DNA of 64,000 nt from Ruditapes philippinarum. Lineage: Eukaryota. A program made the position numbers and the translations under genes. This document shows positions 7,998 through 32,255 of the stretch, piece after piece; position 1 is the stretch's first letter, and each line of letters begins with the position of its first letter. Location: the NCBI RefSeq assembly GCF_026571515.1, contig NW_026864773.1, forward strand, positions 62,001 through 126,000, read 5' to 3'. Under the pieces are notes generated by a model. The model was not told the DNA's origin. It searched no databases and was given only the letters and a program-made list of their open reading frames with translations.

Positions 7998-8449
7998 AAT
8001 GACGAGTTTAGTTAGCAAATATATCGATATATTCCAAAAGATACTGGTCAGTGTTTATCAGATGACCTTTGCGAAAGTTAATGAAGTGCCAGGTCAATGT
8101 TGTTGGACAATACAGTTATATTTGTTGGTATTTGTCAACATGATATAGTTGTATATCATTATCCTTTCAGACGACATAAACCTCTAACTACTTATGAAAT
8201 GCTATTTAGATAATACAATAACACTATATGTTTTTTTTTTAATACACATCTAGCAGTTAAACTTCTTAAATGCAAACGAAGCGGTTAGTGGTTTAAATTA
8301 TCAACTACACAACATTTACAATCTTATCATTATAAAGGGTTACGATAAATATGTTAAAAAGGTTAAAATCTAATGCAGTTACTTAAGCGTAAAAAAACAA
8401 GTTATTTTTTAACTCGGTATTAAAAGTGTACTGGAATGTTTTAACAAAA

Positions 8450-11400
8450 ATGGTGATTGAACTGTTTTGTTTTGCTTTAGGACTGTTTTTACTGTATGTT
8501 TTATATAGTAAAAGAAGGAAAGGAAAGGATAAAGCCCTCGTCGGACCAAAAGGTCTCCCTATACTCGGAAACATCTTGGAAATTGATGACGAGAATATGC
8601 ATTTTAAATTTTCAGAATATGCAGAACAATATGGTGAAATATACCAAGTTAAACTACTTTTTGATACATTTGTAGTGTTAAATAGTGAGCGGGTTATTAG
8701 AAAATGTTTCGGAGGTGATAAATATAAGCACGTTTTTAATGATCGATCTGAGTTATTTTACGGGAAACACTTTGCTTGCAATAACAGAGCTTTGAGTTTT
8801 GTGGTTGATGGGACAGGACTGTTTCATAGAACTGCAAGGAAACATGTTATGCAAGCTTTGCATGCCTATGGCAGTGGACTACGGGATTTAGAGAATAACG
8901 TCATGACTGAATTATCTAATCTACATACGAGAATTGAGGATGAGAATTATTTTGAATGTGTTTCCTTAATATTTCAGTCTATCTCAAATGTTCTGTCACT
9001 AATGGTAGGTTCTGTTTGGTTTACAATATGTCTGTTAATTCAAAACAATCGCTATATTATTTAAATGTTTGTCATATGGTAAGACATAATATATAGTCTG
9101 TATGGGCTCTATTGAGATACTAGGCTGCTTACACATTGTCTCCTTTTAGAGATTCTCATTTCTGCAAAGTAACAGTACTCAATAGTCGGTTATATTGAAA
9201 TGCCTTATCATATTGGTATGCATTAATTCAAATTTACTCTGAGCTTAAAGTACAGAAATTATGCAACCTCGTATCTGCAAATATAAAAGCCGTCATTCTT
9301 TAGGGAAAAAAGTCGATGCCATTATAAATCATGATAATTAAAGAAATTAAACAGAACATTATTTCAAAATCGATTATGTCATGTCAAAATGTGATAACTT
9401 CATAAAGGAGAATGCATGACGTTACGCGGCAAAATCGTTAAAAAATACTTAATATTATTTAAAAAGCATGAGCTTAAAAGAAAGTTTCTATTCTACTTTA
9501 ACTCGTGGCTACGTCACTCGTAAAATATTGCATCTTATGTTCACTCATTAAAATATATTTCAATCTTAAAAGCAAAACAAACAAATAAAAGCGAAATCAA
9601 CAAAATTCAAGTTTTTTTTTTACATACAGGATTTATTTTCATCTTAAATGTGATATGAAAATTACCATATTTTTATTTTGACCGCCGCCACTCGTTATAT
9701 ATATTTATTTATTATCTGAAGAAAAAAACAAAGCGAAACAAACAAAAAAGCATGAATTTAATAAATTATTAAAGCAATGCTGTTTCTTATCCAAGTTAAT
9801 ACAACTTAAATCGTTGTAACACATGCAATGCGGAATATATAAACTTTTTTATAGACCTAGAATTCATTAGTGTGGCAGAATATTAAGATCTTACACTTGC
9901 TGCTGGTACAGATCGGATTATCTAGCTTGAGGGTAAATGTTTACGGCGGTAACGAGGCTCTGCCGAATTGTAGCTAAACAGTTACCCTGAGAGCTAGATA
10001 TGCGTGTCTTAATCGACAGCCGTGTTTGATTGTTTTCTTGCATATGACATATTAATCATAATGGTTAAAATATCACGAACATAATTTTCATTTAGCTCTT
10101 TTTGCTAATAGTATCGTACGAATTCACAACTTCATTCATAATGACAAAATGAAGACATTATACGTACATAAATCATTCACAAACGGCGCTCGGGGATGAC
10201 ATCATTTAAAAGCGCACGACTTATCTTAAATAGGTGGGGGGGGGGGGGGATGTAATTCAGGCTTTATCCAAACAGTAGATAATCCTGTCTGATATGAAAT
10301 TAAAATCAGGTTATGCTTGGTACATTTAGTATCTTTGATGAAAAATAACAATCCTTTTGATTTCATATTTTACAGTTGATTGGTGAACCAGTTTTAGACG
10401 ATGAAAAAGAAAAGAACATGTTCTTGGATGAAATACACGTTGAAGATTTCTTTCTGAATTCTTATGTAAACTTCATTATGTCAGTGTTACCATTTGTACG
10501 ATATATCCCTGGAAGGTACAAACAAGAATTCCTAAAGGCGAAGGCTGTTAATGCAAAAATTGTAAAGAAATATTTTCACGATGTCAAGGTTTGCTTTCTT
10601 TCATTTTGTACAGGGTTTAGTAAAATATATACTGTTTGATAGGTTGATGTACACCTATCTATAAATTTTGAAAATTAAACAGAAATTTTGGTATGTGTTA
10701 AAATCTTGTGACAATTTTAATTTATATGACAAATGTTTTTAAATATCTAATTTGTAAATGACATACATCTTGGTAGCAAAAACGGTATATAGGTATACTT
10801 TCATTGACTCTTTTAGAGAATATTTTCCCGATGTTCACATTATGTACAAGTTTAAAATTATTACTTGATGCTGTGCTTGTTTTTTATAACAGAGATCATT
10901 TGTTAGAGGAAAAGTCCGTGGTATCGTTGATGTATTTTTCGAGGAACAGAATCAACAAATAGAAGCTGGAGGGGAGGTTTTCTTTACGGATGATACAATT
11001 ATAGCACAAGTGATTGACATAATAGATGGGGGTGAGCATTATTATGATATTTAATAAAGCGATCATCTTAAGAAATAAACTGTGTTACAGATAATTAGAA
11101 TCTTACACTGGCTGCCGGAAATGACCGGAATATCTAGCTCGAGGGTAACTGTTTACGGTTGTAACAAGGCTCTGCTGAGTTTCCGCTAAACAGGTTACCG
11201 AGAGCTAGATATTTCCGTCTGGACCGACAGCCGGTTTTGGATTCGTATGCTTGCATATTGCGTATCAATTATTTTCAGAATAAAAATTAGAAAAAAAAAT
11301 GATATATATTCTCATTACACACTTTTTTCTCATTGAAGCGTATGATTTAACAGTAAAATGACGTCATCCTAAGAACGCAATTCAGTCATAAAAGGCGCGC

Positions 11401-19750: not shown

Positions 19751-20574
19751 TCCACAGCAGTACGAGGAAATGCATGGACCTATTTTACGAATTTGTCTTT
19801 GCTTGTGTACTAAAATGCCTGCTAGAAAAATTTAAAACGTTATAATTTTATAATCTATTTTATAACCGTATTTGATACATCAGTTTTCTGTGATTCATGA
19901 TAACTTGGTTTTAGCAATTATTGTTTTGCATTCCCAATAAGCCGAATATTTTTGTCTCACTGTCTGTAAAATGGAACAAGAGGGCTTTTGTGTACGAAAG
20001 AATTGTATAAGACTTGTCTTGGTTCTCATCATTTTCCCTTTTGTAAAAAAAAACTTGTGGATTTTTTTTATTTGTATGTGCATTATATATACTTTTTGGA
20101 ATTGATATTTATTTTTGTTTAGGATCTTAAGCCCCATTTACACAGTCCCGGTTTGCCACGGTTTAGTCCACCGGGATCAACCTAGGTAAACCGGCGTAGG
20201 GTCTTACCGATTCCGTGAAGTACCGGAAAACACCGTGGTAAACATGACGGGAGTTCGCCACGGTTGTATTTAAAAATGATTAATACAACCGGGGCTCACT
20301 GGTACTTACGGGGAGGAAGCTCAGGACCATGTTCTATCTGCTTGGCACCGGGAATCGTCGGTTAACCACCGTTTCTATACCGCATCCATACTGGAAGAAA
20401 TCGTAGTTAACCGGGATACATATGAATGGCAAAGAACCGGTGATGAAACGATGTCACCAAAATAAAAACAGGCAGAGCTACGGTAAAGCCAGTGAAAATT
20501 GTGGCTTGAACCGGTAATGTCCGGAATATACAACGTTGATAGACGGTGGCGTCACGACCTCACGTCGATAACAG

Positions 20575-21699: not shown

Positions 21700-22045
21700 A
21701 TTTATCCTGCTACTGTCTATATCATCAGCTGGATAAAGCCTTGCCGGATAGACTTATCTATCTCCAGTCATTACGTCATATGATGACGTCACATATTTAG
21801 CAGAAAAACAAAGCTACATGTAGATGCTATTTTATCGGGGAAAAAGAATAATGAAACCATTTAATTATTCTATAAACATGATAAATAGCAGGATAAATCA
21901 AATACATGGTTGATGTCGGGATGGAGAAGGTTTATCCGGTTCGCCGTGAAAGTGAATCTTGGCTCGCTAAAGCTCGCCAAGATACACTTTCTCGCTCACC
22001 GAATAAACCTTCTCCATCCCGAAATCAACCATGTATTTTCTATAT
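21700..22045. repeat. Crypton-like palindromic element
   Basis: Near-perfect hairpin 21901-22037 (aatacatggttgat.tcgggatggagaaggtttat / ataaaccttctccatcccga.atcaaccatgtatt), plus the short inverted pair tttatcctgcta / tagcaggataaa. Confidence 0.7.
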
Positions 22046-22668
22046 TTTCATTTATTATTGTAAAGGTTGTGTTTTGTTTTCATTAAACAATATTTTAATG
22101 TATTTCTTTGGTAGATCTATTCTATCAATGATATATAAGGGTCATTCTATTTTTTATTTATGAATTACGATTTTTTATGTCCCTTTGACCTTCGCTACTA
22201 TTATTTGTCTATATTTTTAAATAAAATAGAAAAAACTGTCAGTACCTATTAAATATACAATGAACCCATGAAAAAATAACAAAAACTCAATAAAACTATA
22301 AAAAAGTTCAAAATATTCACCAACTCCGGATTAGACCTCCTTGATTTCCTGACGTCCCTTTGCGTAGTATCGTAATTATTGTTTTAAATATAACTTTAAA
22401 TGATTGATTTCTATTGGCTATTTTCTCATAAAAGTTTATAAATATGAACAAGTAACTGTTATAAGGTAAGTGAATAGGAATTTTAAATTAAGAAATGTAA
22501 ATTATATTTTTGTAAAAATTGTCCCTGAGAAAAGTTTCCCTTCCGTAACCGTCGTAGTAAAGTGTCCGCATAACAAAATGTACCCGACCAGTGAACTTTT
22601 ACTGTGACGTAATTTACAGTTTTAACGCGCGCAATGTTTATCCTGAAACGTGTTTGAGAGATCCAGCG

Positions 22669-23418
22669 ATGGAAGATGTAAAACTAAGACGTAAGTACCT
22701 GAGTTTTCATACGTATACTTATTCATTTCCGTACTGTATTTACACAGTGTATCTACATTGTAAGTCAATTATGTCTTCCGTTGCCGAATATGTCTCGAGT
22801 TCCTGTACACATATCTGAAGGCGCCATTTTGGTATCACGGGTGATTTATTCGGGACAAGGCAATTACAGACAAATTTTCATTTCCGTAACTTTCATTTCC
22901 ATAACCATTTTGAAAGCCATCTTGGTTACGGTAATGTAATAATGGTTACGGAAATGAGTAAACTGTTGTTTTATATCTATAAAAACATATAATAAGAGTT
23001 TTTTTGTGCACCCCACGAAGTGTGAGGCATAGTTTTATCAATGAAAATTGCTAATTAACATTTTACTATATAATCATACAAAATTTATTAAAATTTTTGC
23101 ATTGATAATGCAGATTTAAAATAAATCTTGTCTTATTATGTTGTGACTATAGATCTATTACGAATTTCAACTGTTTCAGAGAGAATCAAGACACTTGACT
23201 TTTTTGACAAACACTTAGGAAAGCTTCAAGGCCAGTTATCTACACTACTGCAAACAAGAAGGGTTACGTTAGCCTGGGCACAAGCTGTTCGGAAGGTATT
23301 CGAGGAAATTGAACAAGTGGAAGATACCATTTTGCTCATACGTAGAAGGTTAAAGGAAAATGCCACTCACCAATGCAGAAAAACAGAAACGTTGGCGAGA
23401 TCGCCAGAAGCAGAATGA
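22669..23418 (+). CDS. Predicted spliced 86-aa helical ORF upstream of and overlapping the Sola2 transposase (exons 22669-22690, 23180-23418)
   Basis: gcgATGgaa start. MEDVKLR-c|gtaagt ... ctgtttcag|ag joins in frame to RIKTLDFFDKHLGKLQGQLSTLLQTRRVTLAWAQAVRKVFEEIEQVEDTILLIRRRLKE...AE*. Confidence 0.5.
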
Positions 23419-26400
23419 AGACACGTACAGAGAATACCTAAGAAAAGAAAGAGAAAGGTACAAAAGCAAGAAAGAGCGAGGAATTGTTCTACCTATATCA
23501 GAATTGGGCACTCGTGATCAAAGAAATAAACGTCGCCAATGGCGGAGAAATGCCAGAAACAAAAAGGTAAAAGATGTGCAACTCAGAAATGCCATTATGA
23601 ATCAAGTTACGCCACCAACTTCTCCAATGTCACCTGAGAATAACAATCAAAGACAACAGCAACGCAGACAAGCTGGTAGAAAAAAAGTAAGAAAGGACAG
23701 AGCAAGGGCATATAGAGAAATATTCAAGTTACGTTTGGCCTTAAATAGAGCAGAAAGATTAACAGAAAAGTACAAGAAAAGAAATCAAAGGCTACAGAAG
23801 AAACTGCCGAAGCCTAAACTTGATCCTACCAAAGAAACAATCACAAATCGTGAACTGAGAAAAGCCTTGAACTTCTATAATGTAATAGTACAAAATATAA
23901 AAAAGAGATATGATACAACGAAAAGCCCTAGACAAAGAAAGTTCATATCTAGCATAGTTTGTTCCTACGAACTACTAAGGAAGTACCGATTGGGACAGTT
24001 TGCCAAACATACACTAGGAATATCAAAGCACCAAATGAAAACAGGCGATAAAACAAGAAAGAAAACAATTAAATCAACCAGAATTAAAAAGGTAATAACT
24101 GAATTCCTGGAAAGAGACGACAATTCGCGCTTGAAAGCAGATAAGAACGCAACTGTTACGAGATATAAGCAAAAAAAGCAGATCCGACTGTTGACAGATG
24201 ATTTGAAGCATCTTCACGCCAAATTTATATCTGAAGGTGTTCATAGGAAGATTTCATATTCGCTGTTTTGTAGATTACGCCCATTTTGGATTAGATCACC
24301 AACATTCAAAGACAGAGATACATGCTTATGCAAATTACATGAGAACCTGCAGTATAAGCTTGAAAGAGCATATATCGAAAAGATGTATATATCAAAAAGA
24401 ATTCAAGACCTTGCAAAAACTCTTACTTGTAAATTAGACTGTAAAAAATGCATGTATAGGGAGTGTGAAAAATGCAAAAACAAGAGGCTAAACCTAATGA
24501 TAGACGAAGAGAGAAGGGGAAAACAAGTCACATGGAAGATGTGGCAGAATAGAAAAGTAGAATTTATCAAGAAAGGGGAAGTAAAACAAACGACACGAAT
24601 GATAAAAAATACTGAGCAAGGTACCATAGAAACACTTAATGAGGAAATCAACACAGAGATGAACAGAATATGCCGACATATATATAACATCAACAACCAG
24701 TACAAGGCAATTACATATTTAAAGGAAAACCTCCAAGATGACGATGTAATATTTCATGTTGACTTTAGCGAGAATTACAACTGTAAATATGATAAAGAAA
24801 TACAAGCTGATCATTACGGAGCATCGCAACACCAGATAAGCATTCACACAGGAGTCGCATACACCAAAACGGAAACGATTCCGTTTGCCACACTCTCAGA
24901 TAACTTGGAACATGGTCCTAGTGGAATTTGGGCACATATGGAACCTGTTATTAAGTATATGAATACTCGTCATGAGTTTAAGACTTTACATTTTGTATCT
25001 GATGGACCAACGCCTCAGTACAGAAGTAAGTTCAATCTTTATCTTTTTACCACACAAATGTTTGAAAAAGGATATTTGAAAGGAACATGGAACTTCCAAG
25101 AGTCTAGTCATGGAAAGGGGGCAGCAGATGGTGTGGGCGCGGTGGTAAAACGAACTGCGGACAAACGTGTGGAAACAAACGGATCTGATATAACTTGTGC
25201 CGTGGATTTAGCTCACGAACTGAAAGACTTAAACGTTAAAGTATTCATAGTCAAAGGTGAAGAAATTGATAGATTGGCAGAAAAGATCCCAAAGGATTTA
25301 AAAAGTATTCATTTCATCATGAAAGTTCACCAGGTAATAAGACTTTTTGTAACACTTAAAACGAATACACGCTTATATCTAAAATATAAAACCACAACAA
25401 CAATAAAATTTTATTCGCAGACTCAACATTACAGATGCATTTGGTTAACACATTAATAAGTAGAAATATTCTTTTAATAAACGACAGTTTAAAATAAAAG
25501 TAAATAAATACATTAAAAACATACTTTACTTATTAAAGCGCAGATCTTTACAACAACAAAAAATAATATATCATATAAATATTTTGAGCAACGTGTTTTT
25601 CAGGTGTTGGTGAATGAACCAGGAAAATTGCGCTCAAGAGTAGTGTCCTGCTTCTGTAAATACCCAGATGAATGCGACTGTTACATGAATGAGTCTGGTA
25701 CAACATGCTTTCTGGCAGCGGAAAAACATGTAAGTGTAGTGTTATTTTCTGTTATATGATAACTGCTCTCAAAAATTCTCAATCAAGTAATAATAATTGT
25801 ATTGTATTTGCCTTAACCCTGTCCGTCACAATCCACTGTGATATTATTTACATGTATATAGTTAATGATATGTTAATTGTCTTTCAGATAAATAGCAAGT
25901 CGTCAAATGTCAATATTAATACACCACCAGAAGCTGAAAGAAGTGGTCCGTCTGATTCAGGGAGTGGTAATCTAGACAAACAGGAACAGTCACTGCAGTT
26001 AAATTTGAAATAACTGCAAAATAAATATATAAAAGTCATTTTATTCTCTCAGCTAATCACATAATTTGCGTTACATGTATACTGTAAAATTTTATGCAAG
26101 TTAATAATACTTGTAACTTTATATTTTTATTTTCTACATTTTACACTTTCAGCAATCAGCAATCCTCCGACCTCCACTTGATGTCGACGAAACATTAATT
26201 GGACAATACGTGGTGGTACTCTATGATTGACTACCATATCCTGGAGTGGTGAAGGACGTTGATGAAAATGACCTTGAAGTGAAGGTAACTAGATGACATT
26301 TGGATTTGAAAATATTGATCACATGATGACAAATGTGTTGAAAGTTCTGTGTAAAATCACACGTGCAGTAACACATCATTATATAATTTGCAAAAAAAAT

Positions 26401-26705
26401 AATATTATGATGAAAGATTTCTTTAAACTTAGCTACTCTATCTTGATCAATGTTATACTTAATATGTATGTTGTATTCTTTACTTGATAACTGCAATACA
26501 AACCATTTATTCGTCTTTGTTTCAGGTAATGCACAAAGTTGGAGTAAACAGGTTCTACTGGCCAAGCCCATTAGAAGATATATGTTGGTACACAAAAGAA
26601 AATGTCTTAACGATTCTCGAGTCAGAACCAAAAAAACTAACTGGACGTCATTGCCAAATTGATCCCGAAACATGGACATTGATTGTTAAACATTTAGATG
26701 TGTAA
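23360..26705 (+). CDS. Sola2 transposase; exons 23360-25333, 25604-25729, 25888-~25967, ~26153/26160-26284, 26526-26705; one in-frame TGA at 26228-26230
   Basis: Motifs HVDFSENY, FVSDGPTPQYR and WNFQESSHGKGAADGVGAVVKR, with Cys clusters TCLC..H and CMYRECEKC. Later exons give SCFC..C.C and GQYVVVLYD*LPYPG...VMHKVGVNRFYWP..EDICWY. The exon 3/4 boundary is uncertain. Confidence 0.9.
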
Positions 26706-29700
26706 ATGTGAATGCCATTTCACAAACAATAGTTTCATATTGTTGTAAAACAAATTGTTGGATAGTTTCTTGTTACTAGTTGCAACATTTATTTGATTCA
26801 TAGGTATTATATATATAAAAAAAGTTCGTAATGATAGTTCATGTGTGACAGTGTGCTATATAATGGAAGCTGTATATTCGTTACCATTTGTATGGTATCA
26901 TCATAATGATTCGACGGTGATTGCACAGTGTATACCTTTCTAAAAACAGTTCCTATCATAATTCTAGTTTAAATTGTTCTATGTGTAAAATAAAAATACC
27001 ACTTCAGTCCTGCAGAGGAATACTAACACAACTTACTTGTCATTTTTTTAAAGAAGTTTCGTTAAATTGCAATGAAAAAAAAAATATTTGAGAATTTGTA
27101 AAAATAAAATAGAATGACCCATAATTTATTAAATTGTGAAACATGTCATGATAAAATCATCAACAATTTTGTTACTGAAGTTTAGTATTATAATGAATTT
27201 GATTGGTATTAAGCCAATTTGTTACAAGATTAATATTCCTGAAAATCCTACTGGCTGGGGACCACTAAATCCAGACTATCTCCAATTCCGGACTATCCGG
27301 AATATGCCTGATTTTTTTTCTTTGTTCTGTGGTTGTTGTCAACAACCACAGAACAACTTGTTCCATCAGTTGTTGTTTTTTTATCAACAATAAATTCATG
27401 TTTTTCCTGTGATAAAGTATTAAATTTAATTCAACTTTCGCAAGCGGTAATATTTTATGTCAATTACATCAAGAGGGCAATATTTAGCTGAGTTTTGATA
27501 CTTGGTTAATGCTATAATCAATTTCATAGTAAATCCAGTCTCATTGAACCCTCATAATCATGTCAATACACACATGTATTATTTAACAAATAAAACATGG
27601 CCTTGAGGGCAATATGCAAGTTTACGGACTGATTGGTCAGACTGAGGAAGGTATATGGCCCAAAGCGCAGTTTTGATACTTGGTTAATGGTATAATCTTC
27701 TTTTTGTCTTTATTTTTTGTTAATCAAATAAGACAGGCAACACCCCCCCCCACCCCCTTCCCCAATCTTTAATATTTTCACAAACTGTATAAATAAAATT
27801 TATAATCAATTTAAAGACAAATCCTGACTTTTAATCAACATGTAATAAATTTATGTGAAACAAAACAATAAATTCAGTAAAAAGAATAATTAAAAATTAA
27901 TTTACTTCAAAATAAAATATTATACCTCATTTGCATACGCCCTTGTATATTTAATATGATGTCATCATAGAAGGGCATATGCAAATGATGTTGTATATTT
28001 ATATATGTAAATTTTTTAATAGTAATATTTTGATGAAACATTTTAATGTAAGTGATAGTCTGTATGTGTTATAAGCTCAGTTTGCTACTTTTAAGCCATA
28101 ACATCTTGGCTTCTTGTCCTAAGATGAAAGTGTTGATTTGCCTCACAAGCATTGTACTGCTGTGTTTTACAGTCAGTCTTGATTGTAAGATTGTTAACAA
28201 ATAATGTCATACATGCATGCAATATCATTCAAGCAATTAAAATAATTCTGTTCATGACTTTTAACTTGCTTTCTCATATTCTCTTCATGGTACTTTAAAG
28301 CAGTTGAATGATGCCTTTAACATATTGTAAATATTTTCTTTCAGGTCATAAAGGATCTATTGATGATGTCTTTCTTCAATGAATTACTTGACATATAAAA
28401 TGGGGGAAAAGGAACTGTCTATAACAATCTGCAACAAATTAAACAGAAACTGGGACAAGGCAATATAGTTTATCCTTTATCAGTTCTTAACACACTGGAC
28501 TACAGACCACATTTAATTGCATATTATCATTCTATCAAGACAATGCGAAACAAAAAAATAACCTTTATCGCTTTTATTGACTGGAGAAGGAGAAACTCAA
28601 ATCAAAGATGTATACAAAAGAAACAAACAACATACATATGTCAATATTGAATCAATGAAGATGGCAGTTGAAACAAACCATATACATCCATCGTGAATCA
28701 AGGAAGAAACTGGAAACCAACTTGTATACAATGTATATCTTAGAACTGTGAAGAAGAAACTGGAAATAAACCAATAAGTGTTTGTCTTCAATAAACGAAG
28801 AAGAAAGTGGAAAGATATCAATTCAAGTTCATTTTTAATCAACAAGTCAATATACATGATATATACATTTATCTAGTACTACTAACTGCCATCACAAAAG
28901 ATGAGCACAGGGCTATAAAGAAATTGGAACTAAAGCAATGTGCCGTATTTGTTATTAAATGCAGCTGTAAAGGAATATAAGAACACTTTAAGTGCTAGTT
29001 TGGATCATTCTGTTTTGTCGATTATCTTTTAAATGAGAGTAGGAAAAAAAATCAGCTGATACATGTTCAGCTTCAGGTACCTAAACCTTTGTAAACGTTG
29101 TAGGAAAGTTTCTCCAAATTACTCTCCCCCCCCCTTTCCTTGGGGTGGCATCTATGCTGTCTTTTTACCAAATGACTAATGTGAACGTGGTCAAATAGTG
29201 TTATTCTCAGAAACTTGAACCGTAAAACATCGGCACATAGCCTGGGCGTCGCAAGGACATTACGATATAACCCATCGCGTTTCCGTGTCGAATTCGACGA
29301 TAGTCAGGATGGACCTAGTTGGATCTCCACCGGGATCAACCGGGAATACACCGGGTTAAAATCGGCACTTACCGTATATATATCCGGTGCTATATCGGGT
29401 ACTGAACCGGGAATTTACATGGGCGTTGTCGGGGATGTAACTGGATTTTCCATTAAAACACCACGGAACACCGCGGTTTGCCGGCTTAAGACACCGTAGC
29501 GATACAGTGGCCATTACCGGGACAGTGTTAATGGGGCTTAAGTGACCAAATAGTGCTCTACAATTGTAAGTCATTTCAACACGTAACATTTATGATTATA
29601 AACCATAAAATTAGAATATAGATAATTTGGAAAATTCTGTTTAATAAAGTTGTCGGCCATTGGCTAAAGACATGGTTATTCCCATTTCAGTTGTATGCCA

Positions 29701-31199
29701 AGTAATAAATGACTGAAATAAATAACTTAAATATTAATTAATAATAAGTATAAGCAGAAGAGTTTTTGCAAAATGACAATGGAATAAATAAATAAATTAC
29801 AGTTCAGTTTACATTGTAAATAGTTATGAATAACCTTTAAATGAGATTTGAAATCAAAATATTTTTTTTCTATTTCAAATTATAGTATAACAAAAATAAC
29901 TGTTATGATTAAAGGGAGTTAACTTTGCAGTTTTCTTCTATACACATATATATCACTGGTAAGACATTTTGCATTATTAACTGTACGTGTACGTAATAAA
30001 GTAAAAAAATGGACAGACAAGTTAACCATGGTCCATGGTCAAGCGATCAACTATAAATTTCAACATTTTATTGTTTTGGTTATATTAATAATAATCATGT
30101 CTCTTCTTTTTGAATTATTAAAATAGAGAATGAAACAAAATGAACTACTTTTTGATAATATTTAAAGAAATGTTTATTTGTAGATAAATACTGGCTTAAT
30201 TCTCATACGTCTTTCGTTACTAATGAAACCACTAATAAATTGCCATACTCACAACAATGTTTACATTTTGTCAAGTCTGTGCCTAAGTGCCAAACTTCCA
30301 GGATTAATATGTAGTATTTATAAAGCATATAAAATAGTTTATATGGTGATAATTACGTATACTTAAAGGATTGTGATGAGAAATTCTCCTCTATTCACAC
30401 ATACTTACATGTTGTAAAGAAATACCTTTGACAACATTAGCGTGTTTTAATGTACTTGTTATGAGACAAAACAAAATGAACAATTAATGTGTGCAAAAAT
30501 GTATGAAACGGGTCATAGAACGGCCACAGAAAAGGTGATATAAATGATCGATTCCGACACAACCACAATCGAGATGATAATTTAATCTATGGAAGACCGT
30601 ATACGTCAAACTATTTGGTTTATCAGAGTATGTTATCGGTGCGGTAAGAAATTATATCCCACCCGCTGAGACCGAAATATAGTTCCTTTAATTTCTAAAG
30701 TTATTTCTTGTTTAACACGTTACTGTCTTGAATAATATATTTAGATTGACCTAACTGATTTTAGTTAATTTGTAAAAACGTAAAGCCTCAACAGAGCAGC
30801 CCTTTCTTGAGGAAATACAGAAGTTATGAAATAAATGTTGTAAATTATTTTTGCGTTATATTTTTTCATGTTTAATATAAACATGAAATGTGTTTTCAAC
30901 GGAAGCAACATAGAAGGTTGAAACACAAAATTTACTGTACACTGCAATTACCAGTACCGTCCGAAAACAGGCTTCAACATCATTGTCAACTTAGCCTTTT
31001 TGTCCTTTCGGGACCTATGATAGAAACAGAATTGGAATATTTGAAGAAGAAAAACGTGAAATACGAAGTTGTGTAAAGTAATAACAGCAAAGGCGTTCCA
31101 TACAATCTTCCATAATCTGTTTGTATAGCTTAAAATACATACTGTTTGTTAGAATATAAAAGGGAGTAACAGCAAGCGACGGGTCATCATATTGTCAAT

Positions 31200-32255
31200 A
31201 TGTCTTCAGTAAATTACTATTATGTTGGCGATTGTAAACCCAACTATTTTATTGAATGCCAAATAGCGTATTGGGCATGGCGTATATTTCCGGGCATTTT
31301 GCTGTTCTTCGGTACGTGTGGAAACATTATGAATATCATCATTCTCTCAAGAAGTCAGCTTCGAAAATATTCAACTTCAGTGTTTCTTCTAATTCTTGCG
31401 ATAACAGAACTTGTTTTATTATGGATTTCTTTGGTTCCGGACACAACATTAGGTATCACAGGGCGTCGAATTGAGGACGAATTTTTAGTCATATGCAAAT
31501 TGAGATATTGGCTTCTTTTGACATCCGGTTCGTATGCTACGTGGTTACTTGTTTTCTTAACATTAGAAAGGGTACTTTTAACAAAAGCACCAGTATTCTC
31601 TAGAAGGAAAGTAAATCCAAGGAATTGCCTAACTGTATCACTGATTGCTTTGTTGTTAATATCATTGTCGAACTGCCATATGATTTACGGGACGCAATTT
31701 TTCGACGGTCTAAATATTGCAAATACCTCAACAAACAGTTCTTATGACGCCGGTTACATTAACTTACAATATCAATGTTTCTTTGTGTCAGAGGAATATA
31801 TGGCATTTGTTAGACATTTTTGGAGTGTTTTTGTTTTGATTATATATAACGTTTTACCAGCACTCATAATAATTGTCGGGAACGCGAACATTATTGTGGT
31901 TCTATTTCTAAGAAGTCGTGGTTTCACGACAAGGATACACCCGGTTACCAACCCAGCAGAAGCTTCTAGAAGGAAGGCGTCAACTAAATTGTTGGTAATT
32001 TTAAGTGTATTTTACCTCGTCACAACAACCCCGTGGTGCCTTTATATGGTCTTAAGAAGCAAACTGACCGAGTTCGGAGAGGAAGGTGGACTGAGTTTTG
32101 CAAGATGGCAGCTGTTTACTGTGATTGTAAATCTTTTGCTATGGTCAAATTTTTCATTTAATTTCTTCTTCTACTTTATGAGCGGTACTCTTTTCAAACG
32201 AGAATGGAAACGGATCATGGAGAAGGTTGCCGGCCTTTTTAAAAGGCACGACTGA
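31200..32255 (+). CDS. Intronless class A (rhodopsin-like) GPCR, FMRFamide-receptor/GPR139-like peptide or chemosensory receptor type
   Basis: 351-aa ORF with seven hydrophobic segments: TM1 GN, TM2 LAITE, C at the start of TM3, TLER in the DRY position, TM6 TTTP, TM7 NFSFNFFFY and helix 8 SGTLFKRE. Confidence 0.93.
   Translation: MSSVNYYYVGDCKPNYFIECQIAYWAWRIFPGILLFFGTCGNIMNIIILSRSQLRKYSTSVFLLILAITELVLLWISLVPDTTLGITGRRIEDEFLVICKLRYWLLLTSGSYATWLLVFLTLERVLLTKAPVFSRRKVNPRNCLTVSLIALLLISLSNCHMIYGTQFFDGLNIANTSTNSSYDAGYINLQYQCFFVSEEYMAFVRHFWSVFVLIIYNVLPALIIIVGNANIIVVLFLRSRGFTTRIHPVTNPAEASRRKASTKLLVILSVFYLVTTTPWCLYMVLRSKLTEFGEEGGLSFARWQLFTVIVNLLLWSNFSFNFFFYFMSGTLFKREWKRIMEKVAGLFKRHD

Follow-up and report, generated by a model that had tools for sequence, protein, structure and literature searches.

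A Sola2 transposon of Ruditapes philippinarum with a small, conserved, predicted spliced reading frame across the transposase start

RESULTS

A second open reading frame in a Sola2 element

The window analyzed here, a 64,000-nucleotide (nt) stretch of the Ruditapes philippinarum genome (RefSeq assembly GCF_026571515.1, contig NW_026864773.1, positions 62,001 to 126,000 of the forward strand, numbered from 1 below), contains a Sola2 transposon of 4,982 bp at positions 22139 to 27120, whose transposase begins with an ATG at 23360 on the forward strand. Sola2 elements typically carry a single protein-coding gene, and this element departs from that expectation in having a second, conserved open reading frame (ORF) directly ahead of, and overlapping, the transposase start. 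The small ORF opens with an ATG at 22669 (with G at both −3 and +4) and is divided, on the forward strand, between a 22-nt coding part of exon 1 (22669 to 22690, phase 1) and exon 2 (23180 to 23418), separated by a predicted GT..AG intron of 489 nt (intron 1, 22691 to 23179) with a GTAAGT donor at 22691 and a TTTCAG acceptor ending at 23179. The joined exons provide 86 stop-free codons: exon 2 encodes a conserved, predicted helical hairpin of ~60 residues up to 23359, followed by a tail that runs over the transposase start in a different frame, for an overlap of 59 nt. This organization, from the upstream ATG to the transposase ATG, had been put forward in a preliminary description of the same DNA, and each of its coordinates proved correct on rechecking. 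Exon 1 also contains an out-of-frame ATG-TAA at 22676, and a 7-codon upstream ORF (22634 to 22657, forward strand), which may precede the transcription start, ends 11 nt ahead of the small-ORF ATG.

Comparisons were based on 60 stretches around transposase matches from the same genome (out of 124 and 34 matches), among which nine families have an intact small ORF: the window copy, L050, L051, L053, L055, L056, L058, L059, and L120. Left out were L052, L063, and L068 (3 of 14 loci), which have no intact ORF and are additional copies of families already represented by an intact example. The transposases of the other ORF-bearing families are ~30 to 52% identical to that of the window, and all nine families share a common layout, with a TGACGT-type motif and a GC box followed by an ATG-G start, a mini-exon, an intron, and exon 2. 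The coding part of exon 1 is 22 to 48 nt long and always begins with ATG-G, the equivalent of intron 1 spans 365 to 1046 nt in the other families, and the acceptor lies 172 to 205 nt ahead of the transposase ATG, which is reached at the end of the ~60-residue conserved core. The small frame stops 20 to 130 nt beyond the transposase ATG in every family; relative to it, the transposase frame is offset by +1 in three families and by −1 in six (in frame in none), and the two offsets are interspersed on the transposase tree.

Donor and acceptor phases match in all nine families, eight using phase 1 and one using phase 0 with a phase-0 acceptor. When the highest-scoring donor downstream of the promoter motif and the highest-scoring acceptor 60 to 300 nt ahead of the transposase ATG were selected without regard to frame, they joined in frame in 9/9 families, against a chance expectation of ~(1/3)^9, although this test is only partly blind because its weights were set by hand and the promoter motif was placed using the curated ATG. 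The open frame also exceeds what chance would give. Among 1,240 other ATGs of the window, 4.5% are spanned by a stop-free alternate frame of at least 56 codons; such a frame occurs at none of the 11 transposase starts of ORF-less relatives versus 9/9 in the ORF-bearing families (63 to 135 codons), the latter count being a product of selection, since these families were chosen for an intact frame.

Conservation of the small ORF and predicted structure of its product

Leave-one-out profiles recover seven of the nine cores at E values of ≤3.3e-4 among 6,045 peptides, and the best match from an ORF-less locus has an E value of at least 0.37. A profile search of 1.84 billion representative proteins returned 22 matches, of which we read 15 as family members and two as unrelated, leaving five long proteins unread; word-indexed protein searches returned only two and four matches. 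Most of the 15 database members end in a tail that, judged from the protein sequences alone, resembles a shifted frame of a transposase start. One gene model from Mya arenaria (WAR20394.1) opens with a brief M-A-E stretch, after which comes the same domain (E value of 6e-8), so the ORF is present in a named bivalve. The existence of a second, conserved ORF in Sola2, as originally proposed, is thus supported by the layout in nine families, the profile recovery, the frame-blind splice joins, and the database homologues.

The proportion of nonsynonymous differences (pN) is below that of synonymous differences (pS) in 33 of 36 family pairs, with means of 0.56 and 0.76, although both are uncorrected values, synonymous sites are saturated, and the families are related, so that the counts are not independent, all of which lessens what these figures can say for a selected protein. 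Identity at codon positions 1, 2, and 3 is 0.37, 0.50, and 0.34, second positions being the most conserved, and stops number 0 in the ORF frame versus 1 to 11 in each of the other frames. The hydrophobic period is kept across families, and some polar columns are conserved in addition to the hydrophobic core: of 19 aligned rows, 16 have D, 17 have K, and all 19 have E or Q at these columns. A conservation check across related Sola2 families had been suggested at the outset, together with a ratio of nonsynonymous to synonymous substitution rates (dN/dS): the ORF is indeed kept in nine families, with pN below pS in most pairs, and with synonymous sites saturated this falls short of a proper dN/dS. 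Sister copies were rejected as a test of selection, since two of the four that could be located are frameshifted in the small ORF and around the transposase start alike, as expected of dead copies; it is the contrast among families that is informative. Taken together, we consider it very probable that the small ORF encodes a protein under selection.

AlphaFold2 models the product, from 19 sequences, as a helix hairpin consisting of two long helices and a short loop, with a predicted local distance difference test score (pLDDT) of 86. Its best VIA Z score (9.8) is inside the generic range of helical hairpins, and searches gave no usable Atlas match and no Foldseek match at an E value of ≤0.001. 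The window's small protein likewise has no match in Pfam, where eight family members give scattered coiled-coil matches only. The product is predicted to be a small helical-hairpin protein outside the named families and to represent a new small-protein family.

An internally deleted sister copy, L136 (G000:C4223), keeps both terminal inverted repeats, exon 1, the intron, and the small-ORF core and has lost most of the N-terminal half of the transposase; judging from its sequence, it is nonautonomous but could still be a source of the small protein.

Start codons ahead of the transposase

Ahead of the transposase ATG, in-frame methionines are absent from 642 residues, where 13.1 would be expected, and out-of-frame ATGs number 12 against 18.8 ± 2.7 in synonymous resamples (P = 0.011), 10 of the 12 terminating before the transposase ATG is reached. 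Among the database homologues, there is one methionine in 647 core residues, located at that protein's called start. The base at −3 is a pyrimidine at the first ATG in five of the nine families and a purine at the transposase ATG in seven, and in five families, out-of-frame upstream ATGs occur ≤35 nt before the small-ORF ATG, where such short upstream starts could carry ribosomes past it. The small frame ends beyond the transposase ATG and is never in its frame, so a ribosome translating it cannot simply proceed to the transposase. Leaky-scanning bicistrons are characterized by start-codon depletion before the second ORF and often by a weak first context (PMC11291117). The depletion in the Sola2 families fits ribosomes that scan past the first start to the transposase ATG, which argues that the transposase mRNA carries the small ORF and that this ORF gates translation of the transposase.

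Termination-reinitiation relies on a stop near the second start and on a conserved upstream UGGGA-type motif; we rejected it as a route to the transposase, since the stop lies 20 to 130 nt beyond the transposase ATG and a UGGGA-type motif is present in two of the nine families, in unrelated places. RNA structure in exon 2 is indistinguishable from background (z = 0.0), giving no sign of structures resembling an internal ribosome entry site or a frameshift signal.

RNA-side observations

Sequencing runs (X1 to X4 and others) were taken to be RNA by guess, none of the listed runs being on record as RNA. Contigs of four runs span the transposase ATG without a joint, and those of runs X2 and X3 traverse the overlap and the small-ORF stop, again without a joint. 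The preliminary description had called for reads across the 22690/23180 junction; no joint appears there in eight runs, a result that speaks neither for nor against splicing, since depth nearby is 0 to 3, the acceptor is in no listed contig, and 4 to 5% of two raw-read runs was read. Splicing of intron 1 and translation of the small frame are what we infer from the sequence comparisons.

Distribution of the small ORF

No comparable open frame is present at the transposase start of 11 ORF-less relatives, most of which have a likely acceptor a few bases ahead of the transposase ATG, which places the small frame of the other families inside the usual layout of a transposase transcript. In the transposase tree (which omits L124, represented by 66 residues), the ORF-bearing rows fall within one well-supported group of 21, of which 14 have the ORF or a remnant, four are without it, and three (L061, L062, and L065, whose transposase matches begin only at residues 75, 164, and 283) are unscored. 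A core of 14 rows (support of 97/95) includes no ORF-less row, and the tree requires two changes. Of 36 loci, 7 have a held-out remnant immediately ahead of the transposase start; these 7 include none of the 20 loci of the distant group and none of L064, L067, and L141 to L143. Confinement to one group that also has ORF-less close relatives indicates that the small ORF is, on the sequences compared, lineage specific and dispensable in those relatives.

A metagenome scan yielded six loci, comprising a decayed ORF-bearing copy (L140), three ORF-less copies (L141 to L143), and two uninformative loci, with no pair at an intermediate distance suited to dN/dS among them. Within this genome, the ORF-bearing clade is rich in families. 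One of these, L058 (together with L066), has the same two-exon, overlapping layout, with a profile E value of 250 and a transposase that branches apart; its small protein may be a very diverged homologue or may have originated independently.

Promoter-like and repeated motifs

Two likely promoter elements precede exon 1 on the forward strand. The TGACGT(A) motif (22605 to 22611), which we take to be similar to a cyclic AMP response element (CRE), is 22 to 67 nt ahead of the small-ORF ATG in 9/9 families, and the GC-rich box (22626 to 22635), presumably similar to an E2F site in most families, matches by pattern in 8/9, the ninth having GGCGGGAA by eye. This pair (22605 to 22635 in the window, with equivalents in nine families) suggests expression tied to proliferating cells.

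A subterminal repeat motif at 22543 to 22549 (forward strand), a putative transposase-binding site, has related copies in intron 1, as an inverted pair at 22881 to 22954, and at 26879. Short, family-specific motifs follow the same layout in L053, L055, L056, L059, and L120, being situated ahead of the promoter, often right after the donor, as an inverted pair in the middle of intron 1, and near the 3′ end. These recurrent motifs are likely transposase-binding sites and could add transcriptional autoregulation.

Termini, transposase, and condition of the window copy

The element is bounded by imperfect terminal inverted repeats (TIRs) of 28 bp and by 4-bp target site duplications (TSDs). The left TIR (22139 to 22166, forward strand) begins with GGG and has an identical start in three sister copies with different flanks; the right TIR (27093 to 27120, reverse strand) pairs with it as an inverted repeat. 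Sola2 elements have short TIRs ending in 5′-GRG, and the termini are GGG in the window element, GGG or GAG in seven of nine near-group copies and GGT in the other two, and CAC in three distant-group copies. This distant Sola2-like group (L070, L071, and L089) has transposase frames of 800 to 870 amino acids and perfect 4-bp TSDs ending in AT, and its 5′-CAC termini are unlike the GRG usual for Sola2. The ATAA duplication at 22135 to 22138 is identical to that at 27121 to 27124, AT-rich but outside the strict AWWT pattern, and a perfect 4-bp duplication was present in 9 of 12 two-ended copies checked. Such a 4-bp AT-rich TSD is a defining trait of Sola2 (PMC3627910).

The first coding exon of the transposase (23360 to 25333, forward strand, as are the others) contains the motifs DFSENY, H-x-G, SDGP..QY.NK, and SHGK..DGVG and three acidic catalytic-motif residues, D468 (24761), D548 (25001), and D590 (25127). 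These agree with the published Sola2 alignment, in which Sola2-1_BM and Sola2-1_Hrobusta are the nearest rows when compared by eye, and on this basis the earlier assignment to Sola2 is right. The closest named homologues come from bivalves. The transposase model has a pLDDT of 77, and its Foldseek matches are mostly integrases, transposases, and RNase H-type proteins, the best at an E value of 0.004; the window's protein has no Pfam family and no solved-structure match at an E value of ≤0.001.

Four downstream introns appear as joints in a contig of run X1, and one of them also in X2. The exons so delimited are at 25604 to 25729 (joints in contigs of both runs), 25888 to 25998, 26153 to 26284, and 26526 to 26705, the joint of the last being in the run X1 contig and its stop being read from the sequence. 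From sequence impression, the region encoded by the exons between 26153 and 26705 is a compact C-terminal region with many predicted strands and aromatics, possibly a small barrel domain. Sister copies of the element occur on five other contigs. In the window copy, the third transposase donor (25999 to 26000, after the exon ending at 25998) is noncanonical, a change missing from two sister copies, and the exon at 26153 to 26284 has an in-frame stop (26228 to 26230) that is missing from three. With both changes, the window copy is probably no longer fully autonomous, its catalytic exon still being open.

DISCUSSION

The reading toward which we lean is that of a Sola2 subclade with a conserved small frame overlapping the transposase start, in which a shared spliced mRNA yields a two-helix protein in excess and the transposase by way of a skipped first start. 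A single spliced mRNA would carry both frames; the small frame, read first, would give rise to much of the two-helix protein, and the transposase would be made only by those ribosomes that skip the first start (leaky scanning), resulting in little enzyme. Splicing of intron 1, the single mRNA, and leaky scanning are, as a set, likely. The hairpin would then bind the transposase, probably at its long predicted N-terminal helices, and damp assembly of the transpososome, and the element would limit itself twice, through scarcity of the enzyme and through a partner present at a fixed surplus. In bacterial insertion sequence (IS) elements, OrfA products regulate transposition. MURB binds the N terminus of MURA (PMC12973397). 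The binding step is drawn by analogy with these two systems; it is the least supported step, and we propose it tentatively, as slightly less likely than not. That the whole would amount to an operon-like circuit, with one spliced mRNA, a cell-cycle-type promoter, and a new hairpin family that binds and controls the transposase, start choice setting the ratio of regulator to enzyme, is possible and, on present grounds, doubtful. Were it true, host conditions that alter scanning stringency could switch transposition on.

Several observations weigh against this arrangement. The first ATG has G at +4 in 9/9 families and, in the window, a strong context overall; out-of-frame ATGs are retained in exon 2 of several families; and WAR20394.1 has an in-frame methionine within the core. 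One contig of run X4 (22477 to 22813) is unspliced across the donor and then continues into a different flank. Leave-one-out profiles missed L055 and L058 (E values of 7 and 250), and L055 is tied in by its relatives in the databases and by L056, with which it shares 31% identity; homology of L058 is doubtful. The hairpin fold, finally, is generic, belongs to no named family, and has no direct bearing on the role of the protein.

The main rival holds that the small protein is a positive helper, such as MURB of the maize MuDR element or an antisilencing factor, that aids integration or shields the element from silencing under the same translation arrangement. The same conservation data apply to it, and the richness of the ORF-bearing clade in families within this genome would suit a helper, but the close relatives L064, L067, L141, and L142 lack the ORF, so that Sola2 transposition does not in general depend on it, and a helper would have no need to overlap and block the transposase start; we regard this as unlikely. 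A purely regulatory overlapping upstream ORF (uORF), with the peptide as a by-product, would account for the start-codon depletion and the constant overlap and would agree with the lack of a known family or specific fold. Amino acid conservation alongside saturated synonymous sites, the kept hydrophobic period, and the conserved surface residues would be unexpected of a by-product, and together with pN below pS, they argue against a pure uORF, which seems to us highly improbable. The preliminary description had offered an accessory protein and an overlapping uORF as alternatives; the evidence favors both at once, in that constraint speaks against the uORF alone and start-codon depletion speaks for gating.

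If the two frames came from separate transcripts, through a second promoter or an alternative acceptor, their overlap would reflect tight packing only, as might be read from the strong first-ATG context of the window and from the in-frame alternative AG sites in three of the nine families. Those sites are in purine-rich sequence, however, and the other six families, including the window, have no in-frame alternative acceptor; each element has one promoter-like motif set, ahead of exon 1; and the absence of in-frame methionines fits scanning across the entire small frame, which makes separate transcripts improbable. More improbable still is that the hairpin is the N-terminal domain of a fusion transposase, produced by programmed frameshifting, as OrfAB is in IS3, or through a cryptic intron within the overlapping stretch. 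In its favor, and against the arrangement that we prefer, the ORF and transposase frames are joined in WAR20394.1 (1 of 120 long homologues, flagged as low quality) and in a 298-amino-acid database protein (P0014), and indels bring two decayed sister copies into frame; the conserved core also stops right at the transposase ATG. But the two database fusions differ in where the frames meet, as would be expected of repaired or decayed copies; run X2 and X3 contigs pass through the overlap and the stop without a joint; and relatives that lack the ORF likewise conserve the transposase ATG and its context. Frameshifting of the IS3/IS1 type was rejected specifically, since the shift would have to be +1 in three families and −1 in six, no slippery heptamer is conserved, and the transposase frame is closed within 9 nt of its ATG (open for just 0 to 9 nt before it) in four of the nine.

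Small first frames that precede or overlap another are known from several systems. In bacterial IS3 and IS1 elements, a short upstream orfA overlaps the orfB transposase frame, its product regulates transposition, and a conserved −1 frameshift fuses the two frames. The Sola2 families differ in having an offset of either +1 or −1, no slippery site that is conserved, and a small ORF that is predicted to be spliced. The overlapping uORF of the ATF4 type is a comparable arrangement with a short first ORF. Harbinger elements have a Myb-like partner protein alongside the transposase, and the accessory genes of both MuDR and Harbinger are separate, often downstream or on the other strand. Leaky-scanning bicistrons of green algae likewise combine a short first ORF with start-codon depletion, but those treated in PMC11291117 are host genes, whereas in the Sola2 families the second frame is that of a transposase and the small ORF runs into it.

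Among DNA transposons, MuDR (mudrA and mudrB), Kolobok (KolX), and others also pair a transposase with a lineage-specific accessory protein (PMC12973397 and PMC9587614). The KolobokP accessory genes in the latter source are separate, while in Sola2 a single transcript with out-of-frame overlap is inferred, and we found no homology to any of these accessory proteins. The published Sola2 elements (the nearest being Sola2-1_BM and Sola2-1_Hrobusta) resemble that of the window in transposase motifs, 4-bp AT-rich TSDs, and short TIRs, and to these the window element adds a conserved, predicted spliced ORF overlapping the transposase start, which the accessible portion of PMC3627910 does not mention. 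That portion also describes the Sola2-Fanzor1 chimeras of amoebozoa, which are likewise Sola2 with a second protein-coding gene; their acceptance as Sola2 means that a second ORF does not bar membership. Fanzor in those chimeras is a captured gene, large and nuclease-like, that occupies a region of its own, and the present gene is ~80 amino acids, upstream, overlapping, and unrelated.

Accessory genes in DNA transposons are therefore already known (MuDR, Kolobok, and Fanzor in Sola2), and it is the overlapping small gene that appears new. A full-text literature search, limited to the text it covers, did not turn up any small overlapping ORF described for Sola or another cut-and-paste transposon; the founding Sola paper and Repbase are outside that coverage, and a note there is possible. 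The Sola passages seen of PMC4455052, PMC5751038, PMC10294476, and bioRxiv 10.1101/2021.09.26.461848 mention no second ORF. A 22-nt first exon and an overlap of frames would cause the small gene to be missed by ORF-length filters: the bivalve transposon survey in PMC10294476 kept ORFs over 300 amino acids. In the gene model WAR20394.1, the small gene was merged with the transposase frame.

The arrangement bears on how DNA transposons hold their own transposase low and is relevant to any use of Sola2 as a gene-transfer tool. Bench work on Sola elements is, to our knowledge, scarce, and the nine natural variants, with ORF-less sister lineages as controls, make both the translation mechanism and the role of the protein testable.

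Elsewhere in the window, a 48-bp inverted repeat element lies immediately to the left of the transposon (21893 to 22045) and is matched by many RNA reads with differing flanks, so it is likely an abundant miniature inverted-repeat transposable element. A 27-bp inverted repeat with 93% identity, its arms 9.4 kb apart (20126 to 20152 and 29516 to 29542), surrounds the region; a second DNA transposon may enclose the Sola2 copy. Host genes in the window include a cytochrome P450 exon (8393 to 9064) and a single-frame rhodopsin-family G protein-coupled receptor (31170 to 32255).
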